From sequence record MT446397.1: a stretch of DNA of 52,433 nucleotides, one strand, 5' to 3'. Under the pieces are notes generated by a model. It made no database searches, had not been told where the DNA came from, and saw only the letters and a list, made by a program, of their open reading frames with translations. The position numbers and the translations under genes are program-made. Positions 36,679 through 41,720 of this stretch are shown one piece after another; positions within the stretch are counted from its first letter, which is position 1, and the number at the start of each line of letters is the position of its first letter. The stretch comes from Escherichia virus TH23.

Positions 36679-37527
36679 GTTTCTCTCCAGTTAAATTTAA
36701 GTAAGTGTCCTGACGTGGACTATTACGAACATTACAATACATTGGCTTAAATGGTGTTTCCACTGCGGCCAAGACACTTATTAAATTTGATTCGAACCGC
36801 CCAAGTGAATCAGCCTTGTTTATGGGGACCATCGGGGAAAAGTATAAACCCGCTTAATGCTCGCATCATGTTTGAACATTAAGAACCCTGACTTGCATAT
36901 TTCATGTGAATAGGGGCATAGTCTATGTTTAATAGCTAACACCGGACAAGGAGGATTCCAGCTTAGAGCCTGAACTCAGTTCCCGACACATCACAATCAG
37001 CGCAACTAAGCCGTATCGCTACGGTATGCCAGACGCTAACTTGAGCCTTTTTGGACAGAGGCATAACTGTTTGGAAAGTGGTGGATTCGGTGAACTCCGC
37101 GTTCACAATTACACAGTCGGACTCGGATGCTTCATCCCTATCCCATCGTGCAGGTTTCATTAACTCTACGAATCCATTGAATTCGGTGACCAGTACGTTG
37201 GTCAGACGCTGTGGCCTTTACGCGGCCAACGTGCCATTAATGCTGGCAAGACAGAGCTAACGTTCTCAAGCACTTTTGTCTAGGTCTGTTCCCGGCCACT
37301 GTTCTAGGAAGTGACTACCTGAATTTCACGCATTCAATACGGGGCTTCCGTCCTCGGAGGCAGCAATTTCAATTGTTATGCCCAGAGCAATTGCAGGAAT
37401 TACACCTACCATGCTACAAGTAGCTAGAGTCTCGTTATTTAAAGTCACGCACTCCCTCGACTATATTATACGTGTATTTAAAGTCCCGTACCGGACTGCC
37501 AAATGAAATGCGATGGCGAGCATTTGT

Positions 37528-37740
37528 TCACTCACTGTCGGGTAAGTTAGAACACTTTTGTGCCCACGTCTCATTGTGGACTAAAATCTGTGTTTTGGTT
37601 TCGCGTGACAAAACTTTCACTTCTGCAACATCCAAATAGATTGGTTGTGCAATCAAGCAATAATCACTTACGAACCCACTTTGAGAGCAACTCACTATCG
37701 ACATTGCTATCAGAACTGCTAGACACTTCTTTCTGAACAT
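37528..37740 (-). CDS. Candidate outer-membrane spanin (lipoprotein), overlapping the 3' end of the i-spanin-like gene
   Basis: Internal ATG of the 37528..37875 ORF gives MFRKKCLAVLIAMSIVSCSQ..., a signal peptide with a lipobox-like IVSC and extra cysteines; in a different frame to 37664..37900. Confidence 0.35.
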   Translation of the reverse strand: MFRKKCLAVLIAMSIVSCSQSGFVSDYCLIAQPIYLDVAEVKVLSRETKTQILVHNETWAQKCSNLPDSE

Positions 37741-37900
37741 GCGATTTAATCTCGATAGATTCCTTAATAGAATCGAATTGCTTCTCTTTGGCTTCCTGAC
37801 GCTCCTCGGCTTTGCCTGAGCTTTTGCCTTTGAGGAACACTGCAATAATAATACCCAATGCAGTAAGGACGCCAAGAATAATTGACTTAAGCTGTTGCAT
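37664..37900 (-). CDS. Candidate inner-membrane spanin or small type-II membrane protein
   Basis: 78 aa; N-terminal transmembrane helix ILGVLTALGIIIAVF followed by a charged coiled-coil-like segment. Confidence 0.35.
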   Translation of the reverse strand: MQQLKSIILGVLTALGIIIAVFLKGKSSGKAEERQEAKEKQFDSIKESIEIKSHVQKEVSSSSDSNVDSELLSKWVRK

Positions 37901-37908
37901 GAATCACC

Positions 37909-38187
37909 TTAGATGGCGCACGCACCACTTGAACAGTCGTTATCACCAGCACCAGGAACGATTGCTTCTTCGTCCTGCTTCTTCTTGAGTTCTTCGATTG
38001 CTTCTTCGGCAGCACCGAAGTCTAGGTTATCAAGTGCATCAAAATCCATGAGGACTCCAGTATTGCGGTTATTGGAATGATTGCCAATGTAAGAGTCGAA
38101 CTTACATAACACCCCGTCGAGTGTCGTCTTCCCATTTAGACGAATTGGCATTAAGGGTGGACGAGGTTGGGTTCGAACCAACGACAC
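37909..38187 (-). CDS. Small acidic protein ending in an NrdA-like redox tail (DNDCSSGACAI)
   Basis: GTG-initiated 92-aa ORF (80 aa from the internal ATG at 38151); C-terminus EAIVPGAGDNDCSSGACAI parallels the E. coli NrdA C-terminus DLVPSIQDDGCESGACKI as recalled; weak ribosome-binding site. Confidence 0.35.
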   Translation of the reverse strand: MSLVRTQPRPPLMPIRLNGKTTLDGVLCKFDSYIGNHSNNRNTGVLMDFDALDNLDFGAAEEAIEELKKKQDEEAIVPGAGDNDCSSGACAI

Positions 38188-38250
38188 ATCTGTCGAACAG
38201 ATTGCTCTACCTGACTAAGCTCTGGAGCAGACCTTCTGAGCTACTCGTCC
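38156..38250 (-). tRNA. tRNA-like element, non-canonical (possible degenerate tRNA; anticodon candidate UCG)
   Basis: Minus strand: 7-bp acceptor GGACGAG/CTCGTCC, perfect T-arm GTTGG-TTCGAAC-CCAAC, D-arm-like GCTT-AGTCAGGTA-GAGC and a short anticodon-like hairpin; about 21 extra nt between acceptor and D-arm; CC but no CCA. Confidence 0.3.
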
Positions 38251-39121
38251 AAAATTGGGTGGGTTTTGGTAACGCAGGTTTTCCCGAACTGCGAGGCTTG
38301 TAGAATCAGTGAGCCGCCTGTTTGGTATCTTCGGCCTGCCGTGGATTGATGGTCCCGACTCACTTCATCTCAGGTACGAGGCACTACTTTGCGAGTGCAA
38401 GCAGGTGTTGAACCCAAGTACCAACAGGCAACCTAATTTATTCCACCGTTGTGGAAACCATTGGTTAGAGCAGTTTATTTCCATGCTCAGGGCAATTCAC
38501 TTTAGGGCGAATTAGGTTATACAGTGCAGCTTCGAAGTCGCTGCCACAGGCTTGAGATTCCTGTGTGGAGGGAAATCCAAAGGAGCACTTCCTCAAGGAG
38601 TTACGTTTCACATTGGCATAGCTTCTCACACTAAACCAATTGAAGACATTCCAGTGTGCTCGTCCGTCCTCCGGAAATATCCAACTGCATAATTAAGTTT
38701 GTACTCTGTCACATCCCTACGCGCACTGAGGGACTTAAGTCTGCATTACATCGCAGAATACAAATTAATTATTGCTCCGATTTATTAATCACATCTCGAA
38801 GCCACAATGCGCCAAATTTGGTTACATGGGATTGGAAGACCACGGAGAGAACTTAAATTTAATTAAGCTGCAACTCGCATTTCAGAATCATTTGCATTTA
38901 TTTTAAATGAATAAAACAGCCGCATGATAACGAATGAAAACTACTTCAATGAACACTCTTGTCGGGGCCACGAGATTGGGCATCGGCCTACCTCCCAACT
39001 CTAATCACAAGAATGCTCATTGAAGCCCACTCACTCTGGAATGGGTTCAAGGCAGCACCGGACAACTTCCAGTGCACGCCAGATCGATTTAGCTTAGTCT
39101 CTCAAGTTTGCCATCGGCAAC

Positions 39122-39460
39122 TTAGAATACCGGAGCTTCTTCAACAGCAGCTTCTGCTACTGCAACAGCGGCTTCTTCTTCGACCTTAACTTCTTTCACG
39201 GTGTCAAACACAGTGCGTTCAACTTCCGGACAACCGGCTTCAACCCACGGCAGGTAGAATGCCAGGAATGCAGCAGCGGTATTGGTCTGCATTGAGCGAG
39301 AACGGTCAATCAGCTTGTTGGTGTTTGCGAACGCTTCAACAGCAGCTTCAATTTTAGCGCCGTTTTCCAGTTTAAAATCGTGTGCGTTACACTCAGCTTC
39401 ACTCAGGAACAGGGAACCATCGTTAGCTTCGTACTGAGTTACGGTTACAATCTTAGCCAT
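39122..39460 (-). CDS. Hypothetical acidic protein (C-terminus EEAPVF)
   Basis: 112-aa ORF with AAGGT Shine-Dalgarno; conserved intergenic motif about 85 nt upstream. Confidence 0.35.
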   Translation of the reverse strand: MAKIVTVTQYEANDGSLFLSEAECNAHDFKLENGAKIEAAVEAFANTNKLIDRSRSMQTNTAAAFLAFYLPWVEAGCPEVERTVFDTVKEVKVEEEAAVAVAEAAVEEAPVF

Positions 39461-39537
39461 TTGTATATACCTTATATTGAATAGTTTTGCACGCCATCAT
39501 GACGTGACTGTAGATAGATTAAAGAGCCTTTCTCTTT

Positions 39538-40586: not shown

Positions 40587-40858
40587 TCGCGAGTTGCAAT
40601 TTGCATGGACTTGTTTGGTCCGAGGTAGAAGTATTTCTTAACTTCCTCAAGTGTGTATTTAGCACTGCTTCCGAGTATGTCTTTGAAAGTGTGCTTCCAG
40701 AACCCATCTTTCTCCGAAATTCCTACGGTAAAGTCGTTGGTGCCGTTGTACCACCAACGTCCGCCAACCAGGACGAAGTGGATTGTTTCTTCCTCACCTG
40801 TGGGAGCTGTTGTTACATTTCTTAATGTCAAAACTTTAGCAGAATGCTTGCGAATCAT
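40547..40858 (-). CDS. Hypothetical protein (C-terminus ...YGVPF)
   Basis: 103-aa ORF with GGAGAG Shine-Dalgarno. Confidence 0.35.
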   Translation of the reverse strand: MIRKHSAKVLTLRNVTTAPTGEEETIHFVLVGGRWWYNGTNDFTVGISEKDGFWKHTFKDILGSSAKYTLEEVKKYFYLGPNKSMQIATREWTTNQPTYGVPF

Positions 40859-41493
40859 AGGAACTCTCCAATTTTCGATTCAGTGTTTGTGACTTCTCTT
40901 CTCATCTTTTGGCCCAGGAACAGGCCACAGGGTAGCGCAGGAAGGCCGAAAATCGGGCCACTGCCTACCGTTTGTGTCAATTCTGGATAACTGCATTGGC
41001 GAAGGGTTACTCCCGTTAGGGTGCGATACGCTAATCACATGAGTGTCGTCGCCATACGGCTCAGGCGTGTCACAGAGGCTTTGCAACCCTTCCCAATACA
41101 TTCACCCAAATCCCAGCGTTGGCGTAGCTGGTGGCTCGGTTTTGTGCGGATTATGCCACTCTAAGCCCTGTTTGTCCGACTTTCTCGGAGCACCAGCGAC
41201 TTGTGGCACAAACCTATTTTCGAATGACTAACATAAGCATGAGGCATAACCCTCTAATTATTCAGCCCTAACAGCTTGCTTATTTAGTACCAATTCAACC
41301 CAATACATCGACCTATAACAAGTGATTAGCTTCTGCGAAGAAGTATTCTGGCCCTTTGGCCTATGTTAAAAGATAAGTGTATTTGATGGAAACATTCCAT
41401 CGAAAATAACTTTGTAGAATGAGTTGAACATTCTCGCACGTTATCGGCCGTAACGGTCTACCGAGTTACAAAGTTATTATCTGATGTTGTTTC

Positions 41494-41510
41494 TTCAATT
41501 CCAACTAATG
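41494..41510 (-). promoter_or_regulatory. Conserved intergenic motif copy (candidate phage promoter)
   Basis: Minus strand CATTAGTTGGAATTGAA, at the upstream edge of the 40.9-41.7 kb island. Confidence 0.3.
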
Positions 41511-41540
41511 TTTCAGAATTATTCCAATATTCCAAACAAA

Positions 41541-41609
41541 AAGAATAATAAGAATAAATTAAATAAATGAAGAAAGTGCTTGACACCCATTTGGCTATAA
41601 GTGTATAAT
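41541..41609 (+). promoter_or_regulatory. Consensus sigma70-type promoter with A-tract UP-like element, oriented opposite to all genes
   Basis: TTGACA at 41580..41585, 18-nt spacer, TATAAT at 41604..41609; upstream A-tracts aaagaataataagaataaattaaataaatg. Confidence 0.5.
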
Positions 41610-41634
41610 GCCTTTCTTCCCTAAGAGGTCAGAA

Positions 41635-41650
41635 TCAAATCCCACTAATG
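41635..41650 (-). promoter_or_regulatory. Conserved intergenic motif copy (candidate phage promoter)
   Basis: Minus strand CATTAGTGGGATTTGA; shares a 14-nt identity (actaatgtttcaga) with the 41494 copy. Confidence 0.3.
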
Positions 41651-41720
41651 TTTCAGACTAAAGCCGAAGGCCAATGCGAGTACAAAACCCGCTTGGCACT
41701 TCGAAGAAACCCGCCTGGAA

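Follow-up and report, generated by a model that had tools for sequence, protein, structure and literature searches.

Conserved gene-poor islands of a Chaseviridae phage include a tmRNA-like tag template without a recognisable tRNA-like domain

Why does a tightly packed phage genome leave three long stretches almost free of genes? The window analysed here, the whole 52,433-nt stretch of Escherichia virus TH23 (MT446397.1), is from a Chaseviridae phage with its genes on the minus strand. It is 100% identical to Escherichia virus TH28/TH33 and 85-94% identical to Carltongylesvirus-type phages, and sense-strand ORFs of at least 60 aa cover 88.6% of it. An earlier note had placed ORF-poor islands at 36679..37527, 38188..39121 and 40859..41720 (islands 1 to 3); these coordinates are correct, and the islands are indeed gene-poor and among the few gaps in the window. 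A fourth ORF-poor stretch lies at 48253-49782. The accompanying statement that the islands lack sense-strand ORFs of at least 60 aa is true of 38188-39121 only, and not of islands 1 and 3:

36963-37160, minus (sense) strand: 65-aa ATG ORF in island 1
40880-41101, minus (sense) strand: 73-aa ATG ORF in island 3

The true lower bound of island 2 is 38050, because the 92-aa ORF 37909-38187 overlaps tRNA-like genes and the conserved gene below the island has just 46 aa (38049-37909).

Within the islands, variable sites are spread evenly over the codon phases (p = 0.34, 0.36 and 0.72; in island 1, 39/27/33 with p=0.34, 0.117 variable sites per nt and 90 indel sites), and there are 43-90 indel sites. 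All flanking genes show a third-codon-position excess of variable sites (p from 8e-18 to 0.05). The islands have 0.12-0.18 variable sites per nt, and most neighbouring genes 0.13-0.30. All three are genuine stretches without protein genes, and they are conserved like the genes around them. The 65-aa and 73-aa ORFs are not genes, because close relatives have stops or frameshifts in them, they lack a third-codon-position excess, and, as for the island ORFs in general, a search of PHROG and Pfam returned zero family matches. Clusters of very small peptides, one suggestion of the earlier note, find no support either: relatives show interruptions in each of the small ORFs, codon periodicity is missing from all of them, and the sole peptide-like signal is a 10-codon tmRNA-type tag without a conserved start codon. 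The suggestion of structured RNAs is supported, as conservation without the marks of coding sequence is seen in all three islands, and the proposed covariance and folding analysis yields helices and pseudoknots with compensatory changes in them. On balance, we favour reading the islands as places where a Chaseviridae phage keeps non-coding RNAs and control elements, neither missed nor decayed genes.

The tag lies in island 2, whose features are as follows:

38945-38769, minus strand: tag-template RNA of about 180 nt, a tmRNA-like mRNA-like domain without tRNA-like domain (tag RNA)
38918..38944, minus strand: leader motifs GUAGUUUUC (38944-38936) and GCGGCU (38923-38918) at the 5' end of the tag RNA
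38863..38895, minus strand: tag frame GCA AAU GAU UCU GAA AUG CGA GUU GCA GCU UAA, ANDSEMRVAA-stop
38844-38840 / 38829-38825 (S1) and 38835-38832 / 38815-38812 (S2), minus strand: H-type pseudoknot of the tag RNA
38802-38796 / 38780-38774, minus strand: 3' hairpin of the tag RNA with the invariant loop UGUGAUUAAUAA
38944..39025, minus strand: long hairpin of 19-20 bp directly 5' of the tag RNA
38689..38772, minus strand: long stem of 14 bp with two small hairpins inside it, adjoining the 3' end of the tag RNA, in the minimum-free-energy fold
38500..38688, minus strand: variable cassette, non-coding here
38255..38495, minus strand: conserved RNA module with a 3' H-type pseudoknot (CGCAG 38293-38289 / CUGCG 38277-38273; GGG 38285-38283 / CCC 38263-38261)
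38155..38251, minus strand: tRNA-Arg(UCG)-like gene with a 22-nt insertion between acceptor strand and D arm
38081..38150, minus strand: second tRNA-like element with an 8-nt anticodon-type loop UCGACGGG (ARAGORN: tRNA-???)
39538..39560, minus strand: phage-RNA-polymerase promoter-like 23-mer of repeat family D1, upstream of gene 39460-39122

Directly 5' of the tag frame stands AAAAUAAAU, with U(-5) and A(-4), in an A-rich leader. Alignment A2 has A(-4) without exception and U(-5) almost always; they correspond to A86 and U85 of E. coli tmRNA, the frame-setting nucleotides (PMC2481249). The 18 distinct tag templates specify 12 peptides, all of 10 codons plus stop, with a fixed A-N-D/E start, an [A/V]-A end and synonymous third-position changes; in codons 1, 2 and 10 and in the stop, positions 1-2 are fixed and position 3 is variable. 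The tag variants evolve like coding sequence, and an in-frame start codon is missing in most lineages that carry the RNA. A helix covers the tag stop codon, just upstream of the pseudoknot region 38774..38844. Across the 19 sequences of alignment A1, the 20 pairs are 95.6% paired, 15 of them with compensatory changes, a result equalled by 0/500 shuffles and set against at most 54% paired in slid controls. The window's copy scores 144 bits with covariance model R1 (E = 1e-32), and for 38680-39040 the minimum-free-energy fold gives z = -4.26. Rfam matches to the tag RNA are weak, confined to the tag region of the tmRNA models and below every threshold; neither ARAGORN nor Rfam reports a tmRNA, be it in the window or in a complete Klebsiella phage genome carrying the tag RNA. 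No PK1-like fold was detected in the leader, nor an SmpB gene in the window. The tag RNA is thus a template without a recognisable tRNA-like domain (acceptor stem, T arm, CCA). The earlier note did not detect this template.

Both flanks of the tag RNA are structured. The upstream hairpin, inverted repeat I2 (19 nt, 89% complementary), is part of the fold of 38680-39040, has another sequence but is still paired in Faunus, Y2 and Mangalitsa, and continues with its 3' strand into the 5' motif of the tag RNA; it is probably an RNase III-type processing site. The 14-bp stem module 38689..38772, kept in close relatives and bearing an insertion in phage flopper, is probably a processing module. The ends of the tag RNA would be set by flanking long hairpins, and in other phages by tRNA genes or a dedicated sigma-70 promoter: homologues usually adjoin tRNA genes, and in two lineages a TTGACA-17-TAGATT promoter lies directly upstream. 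Homologues, all unannotated, turn up in 151 phage records that represent at least six lineages, with carriers in Chaseviridae, Ounavirinae, Ackermannviridae, Schitoviridae, Caminolopintovirus, Roufvirus and Klebsiella siphophages, and additionally in viral contigs and 12 metagenome contigs; a search of bacterial genomes confirmed none.

In the rest of island 2, the cassette 38688-38500 is replaced by a superinfection-immunity-like (imm-like) gene in phage Mangalitsa, and its 54-aa ORF has no codon pattern here (11/7/3). The module 38255..38495 is kept in Y2, Faunus and phiA050, where its second stem covaries by eye (GGG/CCC to ACAG/CUGU). The tRNA-like element that had been noticed before is present at 38251-38081 and comprises two units. 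The tRNA-Arg(UCG)-like gene, annotated in phiEcoM-GJ1 as 'tRNA-Arg, may contain an intron' and absent from PYps3T, scores 25.6 bits with the Rfam tRNA model, below the gathering score of 29, and matches in ARAGORN only at a relaxed threshold. The second element is a strain-specific insertion, as 38065-38160 does not align to six close relatives. The 23-mer 39538..39560 matches the position of 'putative phage promoter 7' in phiEcoM-GJ1 and is probably, judged from the sequence, the start of a transcript running into island 2.

Islands 1 and 3 differ in content:

36679..37527, minus strand: island 1, conserved non-coding, multi-helix structured RNA region
36999..37070, minus strand: H-type pseudoknot (ACAG 37070-37067 / CUGU 37058-37055; loop GCCU 37062-37059 / AGGC 37048-37045)
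36789..36849, minus strand: two more hairpins, GUUUAU/AUAAAC (36849-36818) and GAUUC/GAAUC (36811-36789, the one with the conserved loop ACUUGGGCGGUUC)
41495..41657, minus strand: control region of island 3, two promoter-like 23-mers (41657-41635 and 41517-41495) with an A/T-rich spacer between them
41580..41609, plus strand: perfect sigma-70 consensus promoter, TTGACA-18-TATAAT (12/12 matches), antisense to all genes
41121..41285, minus strand: structured block, long helix UGCCAC.../...GUGGCA around a hairpin, with conserved AAGCAAGCUGUUAGGGCUGAAUAAUU
40944..40959, minus strand: GC-rich hairpin GGCCCGAUUUUCGGCC, seen in the sequence

Island 1 is a multi-pseudoknot structured RNA. Its part 36750-37100 is 70-87% conserved in other genera, and 3' of the pseudoknot a helix (AGCGU 37037-37033 / GCGCU 37003-36999) surrounds the hairpin CCGUA-GCGA-UACGG (37024-37011). 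In alignment A3 (8 phages, 4 genera), 18 pairs are 98.6% paired and 11 show compensatory changes, with 0/500 shuffles as good and slid controls at no more than 49% paired. The GAUUC/GAAUC stem covaries by eye: AGUCC/GGACU in Faunus, GGUC/GACC in phiA050 and GAUUCC/GGAAUC in Y2. Island 3 appears to be a promoter region, two phage-type and one antisense host-type, plus a structured block. Both copies of the conserved 23-mer reported earlier are there, at 41657-41635 and 41517-41495; they correspond to the putative phage promoters 4 and 5 of phiEcoM-GJ1, their core CATTAGTTGGA is kept in Faunus and phiA050, and several relatives have a small gene between the duplicated motifs. In Faunus and phiA050, both hexamers of the sigma-70 promoter are conserved and the spacer is variable. 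The block 41121..41285 is a structured RNA with moderate confidence (in alignment A4, 6 of 39 predicted pairs have compensatory changes). The GC hairpin singled out before lies at 40959-40944, in a region 96-99% conserved in close relatives.

Could the islands be protein-coding after all, or remnants of genes? Small protein genes overlooked in the islands, among them one for a 20-aa peptide MRLFYSFKINANDSEMRVAA from an in-frame ATG at 38925, are very improbable. ORFs of 55, 65 and 73 aa are present, some relatives have small CDSs annotated in this region, and the window and phiEa21-4 share the in-frame ATG ten codons upstream of the tag; however, these annotations conflict in position and strand, family matches in PHROG and Pfam are absent, the ORFs meet stops, frameshifts and many indels without codon periodicity, and the in-frame start is absent in Y2, Faunus, Klebsiella, PC3 and metagenome variants and has no Shine-Dalgarno sequence. 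Relatives, where conserved small genes with a coding signal would have spoken for missed genes, show conservation but no coding signal. We give equally little credence to decaying, now functionless remnants of genes, introns or homing cassettes. The comparison with relatives for gene replacement gives a divided answer: two sub-segments are swapped for genes and act as exchangeable cassette slots, but the islands as a whole are conserved. Degenerate-looking tRNA-like genes and homing endonuclease genes near this region in relatives would suit decay, yet the islands are at least as conserved as neighbouring genes, compensatory base-pair changes are seen across genera, and the core element is kept in unrelated phage families. 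For decayed nrdA or an intron/homing cassette, as the earlier note had put it, there is no protein-family match and no Rfam intron match, and conservation is too high.

How does the tag RNA compare with known systems? Like bacterial tmRNA (SsrA; RF00023; permuted RF01849-RF01851, RF04321), it begins an internal tag with a GCA resume codon and no start codon, after an A-rich leader with U/A at -5/-4; both tags begin A-N-D/E, have a hydrophobic residue at position 6 and end [A/V]-A, like ANDENYALAA, and in both the stop codon lies in a helix followed by an H-type pseudoknot. Unlike bacterial tmRNA, the phage RNA lacks acceptor stem, G3:U70, T arm and CCA, carries a single pseudoknot where tmRNA has four, lacks a detectable PK1, measures about 180 rather than about 360 nt, is missed by ARAGORN and stays below every Rfam threshold, and is phage-borne with a 5' end antisense to the host tmRNA template. 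Two-piece (circularly permuted) tmRNAs are found in Alphaproteobacteria, some Betaproteobacteria and Cyanobacteria; a single gene gives rise to both pieces, and the coding piece supplies the 5' acceptor strand and pairs through P1/P2. There, too, the coding function sits on a separate RNA that needs a base-paired acceptor RNA; however, the phage RNA has neither acceptor strand nor P2 partner, and the host tmRNA template is the only target to which it shows conserved complementarity. The species 1 and 2 RNAs of T4, unexplained structured RNAs that are transcribed and processed together with phage tRNAs, are alike as structured RNAs of phage tRNA clusters; we know of no small stable RNA of such clusters with a tag template. 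Complete tmRNAs occur in mycobacteriophages Bxz1, Cali, Catera and others and in Bacillus phage G, and DS6A has a tRNA-like-domain-only tmRNA (Hudson, Lau and Williams 2014, PMC4131195). All are tmRNA-derived and carried without smpB, as is the tag RNA, which is template only. DS6A sets a precedent for keeping one tmRNA half, of which the tag RNA is the mirror image; its hosts, phages of Enterobacterales, Vibrio and Aeromonas, are unreported in that survey (PMC4131195).

The leader suggests how such a template could work. GUAGUUUUC is complementary to positions 99-107 of E. coli ssrA and GCGGCU to 86-91; overall, the two conserved 5' motifs can pair with 86-91 and 97-107, at the start of the host tag template, a stretch that takes in A86, which sets the frame, then the resume codon and codons one to six. 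In shuffled ssrA, both sites occur in the right order in 9/100,000 cases for the window motifs and in 108/100,000 for the family-core motifs; this motif test is post hoc, and the sequences, being related, do not count as independent. The duplex energies reach a modest significance (p 0.007-0.16; window 0.07). Salmonella phages retain AGUUUUCG, and the Salmonella ssrA presumably differs by one base in the motif target; host-specific covariation would therefore be absent. We think it rather probable that the tag RNA is a trans-translation template that depends on host tmRNA-SmpB and may dock onto host tmRNA. Island 2 would be a processed small-RNA array, probably transcribed from the phage promoter at 39560, with the tmRNA-derived tag-template RNA of about 180 nt as its key member. 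On stalled host ribosomes, this template would give incomplete proteins the phage-specified, degron-like tag ANDSEMRVAA. The tRNA-like domain and SmpB would have to be borrowed from the host, because the phage encodes neither, and pairing of the 5' motifs with ssrA 86-91 and 97-107 could tether the template to Ala-tmRNA-SmpB and mask the host template. Expression, processing, tag translation and docking are steps that we infer from the sequence; the ribosome could unwind a 9-12 bp duplex, which would count against docking. No tmRNA is known to function unless its tRNA-like domain is attached covalently or through a helix, which leaves the proposed borrowing without precedent.

Two other readings keep the tag RNA but change its role. 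It could be the coding piece of a two-piece phage tmRNA whose acceptor piece, too divergent for ARAGORN or Rfam, lies elsewhere in the phage, with neighbouring tRNA-like genes or other stem-enclosed modules as candidates. Such tmRNAs are established in bacteria, the tag RNA is found among tRNA or tRNA-like genes (in the window 520 nt upstream of them), siphophages have tRNA-shaped modules beside it (by eye), and in phiEa21-4 an upstream unit folds as acceptor stem, long helix and T arm with the end GCCA, possibly a tRNA-like-domain-only unit. But that unit is restricted to Kolesnikvirus, the window's tRNA-like genes have no G3:U70 and are absent, one from PYps3T and the other from six relatives, a complete phage genome with the tag RNA has tRNA-Arg and tRNA-Met only, and within the phage the 5' end has no conserved partner; we regard an acceptor piece of phage origin as unlikely. 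Just as doubtful is that the RNA goes untranslated and acts as an antisense RNA or decoy, blocking or titrating host tmRNA-SmpB (or S1 or RNase R), with the tag frame as no more than an inherited relic. The 5' complementarity to the host tag template and the missing tRNA-like domain would fit, and a proposal for DS6A is that its tRNA-like-domain-only tmRNA inhibits tmRNA via SmpB titration (PMC4131195). A relic or decoy, however, would not hold on to exactly 10 codons and a stop, a fixed A-N-D/E start, an [A/V]-A end and synonymous third-position changes across 12 variants, and would not retain the frame-setting A(-4).

What emerges, beside the trans-translation template that we favour as its role, is a phage RNA that had gone unannotated until now: the tag template of tmRNA minus its tRNA-like half, common to more than 150 phages.

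The 6.5 kb around the three ORF-poor islands are 100% identical to Escherichia virus TH28 and TH33; about 40 Carltongylesvirus-type phages (Chaseviridae, Cleopatravirinae), MLP1, Mangalitsa, PYps3T, and phiEcoM-GJ1 among them, match these 6.5 kb at 85-94% identity. All long ORFs of the window lie on the minus strand, mostly abutting or overlapping, so that 'sense' means the minus strand; sense ORFs of at least 60 aa, mechanically defined, cover 88.6% of the window. The segments that the earlier note described as free of such ORFs (islands 1, 2, and 3: 36679-37527, 38188-39121, and 40859-41720) are indeed among the window's few gaps, but the description holds in full for island 2 only. 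Island 2 itself reaches down to 38050, its true lower limit, because the 92-aa ORF 37909-38187 overlaps the tRNA-like genes and the conserved gene there is a 46-aa ORF. Both mechanical ORFs between islands 1 and 2 (37528-37900 and 37909-38187, minus strand) are too long compared with the conserved genes, and 37528-37875 over-extends an Rz1-like lipoprotein gene that overlaps an Rz-like gene. The small ORFs and genes concerned are:

36963-37160, minus (sense) strand: 65-aa ATG ORF inside island 1
40880-41101, minus (sense) strand: 73-aa ATG ORF inside island 3
37900-37664, minus strand: conserved Rz-like gene
about 37740-37528, minus strand: Rz1-like lipoprotein gene (MFRKKCLAVLIAMSIVSC...), overlapping the Rz-like gene
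38049-37909, minus strand: conserved 46-aa gene, codon-position changes 3/1/15

Elsewhere in the window, sense ORFs of 80 aa or more are also lacking from an AT-rich stretch (48253-49782, minus strand, GC 0.37-0.39).

The region was compared by alignment with nine Chaseviridae genomes, six close and three distant. All flanking genes have an excess of third-codon-position substitutions (19/9/78 for the 224-aa gene, p = 8e-18); codon periodicity is absent from islands 1, 2, and 3 in any frame (39/27/33, 56/43/45, and 49/51/57; p = 0.34, 0.36, and 0.72), and these carry 90, 72, and 43 indel sites, compared with 0-14 in genes. Each small island ORF, the 65-aa and 73-aa ORFs included, either has a stop or frameshift in at least one close relative or shows lower amino-acid than nucleotide identity; none matches PHROG or Pfam, and the relatives' annotations of the islands conflict in position and even in strand. 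Clusters of very small peptides, one reading put forward in the earlier note, are contradicted by ORFs that are broken in relatives and lack a third-position excess, and alignment to related phages gives no coding signal that would point to missed small genes. Decayed genes, a further suggestion, do not fit islands that are at least as conserved as their neighbours: variable sites per nt amount to 0.12-0.18 versus 0.13-0.30, and parts of the islands are 97-100% identical among relatives. As they are conserved to this degree without a coding signal, we conclude from the alignments that the islands are functional non-coding DNA. It was the proposal of structured RNAs that proved right: folding and covariation analysis finds helices and pseudoknots with compensatory changes, with at least four covariation-supported pseudoknots or helix sets within the 5 kb of the islands, and the GC-rich hairpin, the tRNA-like element, and the repeated 23-mer all lie where they had been placed.

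In island 2, a permissive Rfam scan matched 38958-38808 weakly to two tmRNA models, in their tag-coding part. On the minus strand, the sequence is AAAAUAAAU GCA AAU GAU UCU GAA AUG CGA GUU GCA GCU UAA, corresponding to ANDSEMRVAA-stop (38895-38863), and the 170 nt around this tag are the sole part of the islands that is conserved beyond Chaseviridae by BLAST. This element, a predicted RNA of about 180 nt (38945-38769, minus strand) that we call the tag RNA, is found by BLAST in 151 phage records, nearly all unannotated at the site. Its carriers include other Chaseviridae genera (Y2, Faunus, Pantoea SSEM1, and Aeromonas phiA050), Ounavirinae (phiEa21-4, whose copy sits within a 22-tRNA array), Ackermannviridae (PC3), Schitoviridae (TR2), Caminolopintovirus, Roufvirus, and Klebsiella siphophages, and pattern scans supplied extra copies in viral contigs and 12 metagenome contigs. 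In bacterial genomes, a loose pattern gave 105 matches, but a covariance model built on the tag RNA confirmed none of the roughly 100 fetched, and E. coli genomes hold no copy. The host given for PP952070.1, 'Staphylococcus phage Pel53', is S. hyicus, a label that looks doubtful: across the region, this phage shares about 91-93% identity with the E. coli and Yersinia Chaseviridae phages.

All copies follow a common plan: a leader of about 55 nt, AUAAAU, GCA or GCU with nine further codons and a stop, a stop-codon helix, an H-type pseudoknot, and a terminal 7-bp hairpin with the invariant loop UGUGAUUAAUAA. Over 19 aligned homologues, the fold has 20 pairs that are 95.6% paired, 15 of them with compensatory changes; 0 of 500 shuffles were as good, and slid controls reached at most 54% pairing. 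The pseudoknot loop pairing, for example, switches from CCAA/UUGG to CCGA/UCGG, CCAG/CUGG, or UCGA/UCGA. The string (U)GUGAUUA recurs at the 5' side of the loop in three hairpin modules on the minus strand, namely the 3' hairpin of the tag RNA (38791-38784), the hairpin upstream of it (39013-39006), and a module in island 3 (41043-41036), and may be a shared protein- or RNA-binding site.

How would the tag be read? Eighteen distinct templates yield 12 peptides, always as ten codons and a stop, among them ANDSEMRVAA, ANDNEMRAAA, ANDSEMRMVA, ANDAQFLAVA, ANEEVYLAVA, ANEEMYLAVA, ANDSEVLMAA, ANDDVVLMAA, and ANDTEFKAAA; metagenomes supply three more variants. In codons 1, 2, and 10, the first two positions are fixed and the third varies (GCU/GCC/GCG), residue 6 is always M, V, F, or Y, and residue 9 is A or V; the remaining two frames give peptides of unrelated length and sequence. 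The E. coli tag is AANDENYALAA, and the phage tags, if preceded by the alanine that charged tmRNA would add, have the same length and layout. As in tmRNA, an internal frame, in most lineages lacking an in-frame start codon, runs from a resume codon (in tmRNA usually GCA) to a hydrophobic degron of the ...AA type and a stop, with codon-like variation. An in-frame ATG is present in the window and phiEa21-4 and absent from Y2, Faunus, the siphophages, PC3, and the metagenome variants, and no Shine-Dalgarno sequence precedes the tag frame. Before the resume codon, A(-4) never varies and U(-5) is found in at least 90% of sequences, with C in GJ1; these frame-setting positions correspond to A86 and U85 of E. 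coli tmRNA, where A86 is the main reading-frame determinant and a change of U85 to C is tolerated (PMC2481249). The simplest reading of these patterns is that the tag frame is read as tmRNA frames are. In phiEcoM-GJ1 (L010, 4021-4034) and a metagenome contig (L298), the 14 nt before the resume codon are replaced (..AAACACUAAACACAAGU before GCA), with A(-4) retained and U(-5) changed to C.

The tRNA-like domain of tmRNA is formed from the two ends of the RNA and comprises a 7-bp acceptor stem with G3:U70, a T arm, and a 3' ACCA. ARAGORN, run for standard and permuted tmRNA, detected none in the window, the fetched loci, or the complete 48-kb genome of Klebsiella phage VLCpiS13b, whose element has its own promoter and adjoins tRNA-Arg and tRNA-Met, and Rfam found neither a tRNA-like domain nor a tmRNA. 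At gathering level, Rfam has no match in the whole window; at an E-value threshold, it gives only the weak tag-region matches, the best sub-threshold tmRNA matches scoring 17-19 bits against thresholds of 47-50, and a sub-threshold tRNA match. Nor is there room for such a domain, given where the two ends of the RNA are placed. In several lineages, consensus sigma-70 promoters (TTGACA-17-TAGATT) put the 5' end at a conserved (A)GUUUUCG (the AGUUUUCG motif), which elsewhere, the window included, forms the 3' strand of a roughly 20-bp hairpin; in contig L023, about 126 nt separate the tag start from the beginning of a tRNA-Asn gene, which lies directly behind the 3' hairpin, so that nothing follows this hairpin. 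The leader lacks PK1, which in tmRNA lies about 12 nt upstream of the resume codon: RNAalifold on the 19 leaders gave -2.1 kcal/mol and 0 covarying pairs, hence no conserved fold. Downstream of the tag, where tmRNA (SsrA) has helix 5 with the stop codon and then PK2-PK4, covariation supports the stop-codon helix, a single H-type pseudoknot for which homology to PK2 is not demonstrable, and the hairpin. No SmpB gene was detected in the window with E. coli SmpB as query.

Several candidates for a tRNA-like domain or an acceptor partner were tried and discarded. ARAGORN at relaxed thresholds, with and without introns, returned only noise. Among T-loop-like motifs, 36798-36788 lies in a hairpin that covaries, and 38414-38404 does not form a T arm; the island 1 string 'AAGGCUGAUUC', likened to a tmRNA 5' end and a Klebsiella-phage unit, is a hairpin strand without significant similarity to them. 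The tag RNA 5' end could pair at long range with 39520-39485, but relatives do not keep this pairing, the conserved partner being the adjacent upstream hairpin; the neighbouring tRNA-like genes lack G3:U70 and are dispensable. A unit in phiEa21-4 that resembles a tRNA-like domain is limited to one genus and does not qualify as a general partner. This 169-nt unit between tRNA-Arg and the tag RNA (L004, 1284-1452) is confined to Kolesnikvirus (36 records); it folds into an acceptor-like stem GGGUGAU/AUCACUC (G2:U71), a long helix, and a T arm UUCGAAU, ends in GCCA, and may itself be a tmRNA-like RNA with a tRNA-like domain only. A different, tRNA-shaped unit lies behind the tag RNA in L005 (about 1675-1812) and in L257, L262, L292, and L297: a 7-9 bp stem UGUGGUG/CACCACA closes it, and its 5' hairpin loop AGGCUGAU is Watson-Crick complementary to its 3' hairpin loop (AGAUCAGCA or ..GUUAGCA), giving a kissing 'elbow' without a canonical T loop or CCA. 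In tRNA arrays of siphophages and other phages (L005, 1575-1680; L029, L055, L069, L257, L292, and others), a long stem repeats between units, ACAACAGGTAAGAGCATTG and CAGTGCTCTTTCCGTTGTGG flanking 40-120 variable nt, with compensatory changes such as AAGAGCA/TGCTCTT to AATGGCA/TGCCATT; in appearance, these stems resemble RNase III-type processing sites or inverted-repeat cassettes of a MITE-like kind.

Having found no tRNA-like domain and scores below every Rfam threshold, we do not file the tag RNA as a tmRNA. On paper, it resembles the mRNA-like domain of tmRNA in the way it would work, and we conclude from sequence and covariation that it is a widespread, unannotated, tmRNA-derived tag template that lacks a tRNA-like domain and may act through the host tmRNA. 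The tmRNAs of mycobacteriophages and Bacillus phage G are complete, whereas the tag RNA is the template half only; in two-piece bacterial tmRNAs, the separate coding piece still supplies an acceptor strand, which the tag RNA does not. Phage DS6A retains only the tRNA-like domain of tmRNA (PMC4131195), the opposite half to the tag RNA. The literature searched, which is that outside subscription journals, gave no account of a template-only or phage tmRNA-like element of this kind; an earlier description of a template-only element may exist.

A route to the host tmRNA is suggested by comparing the E. coli tmRNA gene ssrA with the 19 tag RNA variants. In 17 of these, the longest Watson-Crick complement of the whole RNA to ssrA lies at its 5' end, against ssrA 96-108, the host tag codons 3-6 (GAC GAA AAC UAC). 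This complement is 9 nt long in the window (GUAGUUUUC) and 12 nt long in phiEa21-4, and many variants have 10 nt. The other conserved motif of the leader, GCGAC(U) (in the window GCGGCU), can pair with ssrA 86-91 (AGUCGC), which holds A86 and the resume codon. The phage template differs at exactly these codons, so the leader would tell host from self. Both complements in the right order within 12 nt occurred in 108 of 100,000 shuffled ssrA sequences for the family-core motifs, 9 of 100,000 for the window motifs, and, for the siphophage type that is commonest, 1 of 100,000, in a test that is post hoc and uses sequences of shared ancestry; duplex energies are less decisive (p 0.007 to 0.16; window 0.07). 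Salmonella phages show no host-specific covariation or adapted antisense motif, with the Salmonella target taken as GAA-ACC-UAC (E. coli GAA-AAC-UAC). Given the post hoc test, the shared ancestry, the modest energies, and the unadapted Salmonella phages, docking of the tag RNA onto host tmRNA is a hypothesis whose support is real but limited. Such docking, if true, would account both for the way in which a template without a tRNA-like domain could reach a stalled ribosome and for a simultaneous silencing of the host template.

Taken further, the tag RNA could be a 'template swap' device, a speculative model that we consider rather improbable. Its 5' end would pair over the frame-setting nucleotide, resume codon, and first six codons of the host tmRNA; the annealed RNA would silence the host tag template and tether the phage-encoded one to host Ala-tmRNA-SmpB, and stalled ribosomes would be rescued onto the phage template, so that incomplete proteins receive a tag chosen by the phage. 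Such a device, if true, would reprogramme trans-translation in trans and non-covalently, and would use a functional tmRNA template that lacks a tRNA-like domain of its own; it would be the first case of either.

Around the tag RNA, island 2 and its upstream flank contain further elements:

38772-38689, minus strand: 14-bp stem around two hairpins, directly 3' of the tag RNA
38688-38500, minus strand: cassette, replaced in Mangalitsa by an imm-like gene
3' of the cassette, minus strand: module conserved in all genera, ending in an H-type pseudoknot (CGCAG/CUGCG and GGG/CCC)
38251-38155, minus strand: tRNA-Arg(UCG)-like gene with a 22-nt insertion after the acceptor strand
38150-38081, minus strand: second tRNA-like element, peculiar to TH28/TH33 and absent from six close relatives
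39560-39538, minus strand: phage-promoter-like 23-mer upstream of gene 39460-39122

The second stem of the module's pseudoknot covaries (GGG/CCC to ACAG/CUGU). The tRNA-Arg(UCG)-like gene does not pass as a tRNA: it scores 25.6 bits against a gathering threshold of 29 and matches model positions 9-63 only, ARAGORN reports it only at an 85% threshold with a 4-base anticodon, its anticodon stem can be closed to a 5-nt loop, where a tRNA cloverleaf has 7 nt, and it is deleted in PYps3T. From its absence in six close relatives, the second tRNA-like element is a recent insertion; within it lies UCGACGGGG, which is likewise typical of the 5' region of tmRNA. The 23-mer at 39560-39538 probably drives the whole island 2 array.

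Islands 1 and 3 contribute the following:

37070-36999, minus strand: H-type pseudoknot and helix enclosing a GNRA hairpin in island 1, with covariation
41657-41635 and 41517-41495, minus strand: two promoter-like 23-mers in island 3, equivalent to GJ1 putative phage promoters 4 and 5
41580-41609, plus strand: sigma-70 consensus promoter TTGACA-18-TATAAT, 12/12 match, opposite to every gene
41401-41385, minus strand: conserved hairpin in island 3
41285-41121, minus strand: structured block in island 3, moderate covariation support

In island 1, conservation in other genera spans 37070 to about 36700. Its pseudoknot and helix together have compensatory changes in 11 of 18 pairs and 98.6% pairing (slid controls at most 49%), two further hairpins covary by eye, and comparison with Rfam families gave no match. 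In island 3, which includes an A/T-rich spacer, several relatives carry a small gene inserted between the duplicated 23-mer copies. Faunus and phiA050 keep both hexamers of the plus-strand promoter around a variable spacer, and it may drive an antisense RNA across the 41657-41635 motif into gene 41721-42026.

Finally, we would like to consider what these RNAs mean for the phages. 'Gene-poor' segments of compact phage genomes can be rich in structured RNAs, and the tag RNA would account for part of the unannotated space in phage tRNA clusters, with a covariance model that is directly usable for routine annotation. tmRNA is defined by the union of a tRNA-like and an mRNA-like domain; the fact that more than 150 virulent phage genomes, spread over at least six unrelated lineages, conserve the mRNA-like domain alone poses a question that can be tested directly. 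Either the host rescue machinery can accept a tag template in trans, or phages interfere with ribosome rescue by means of a tmRNA fragment; in both cases, phage takeover of host translation and protein quality control would gain a new layer.
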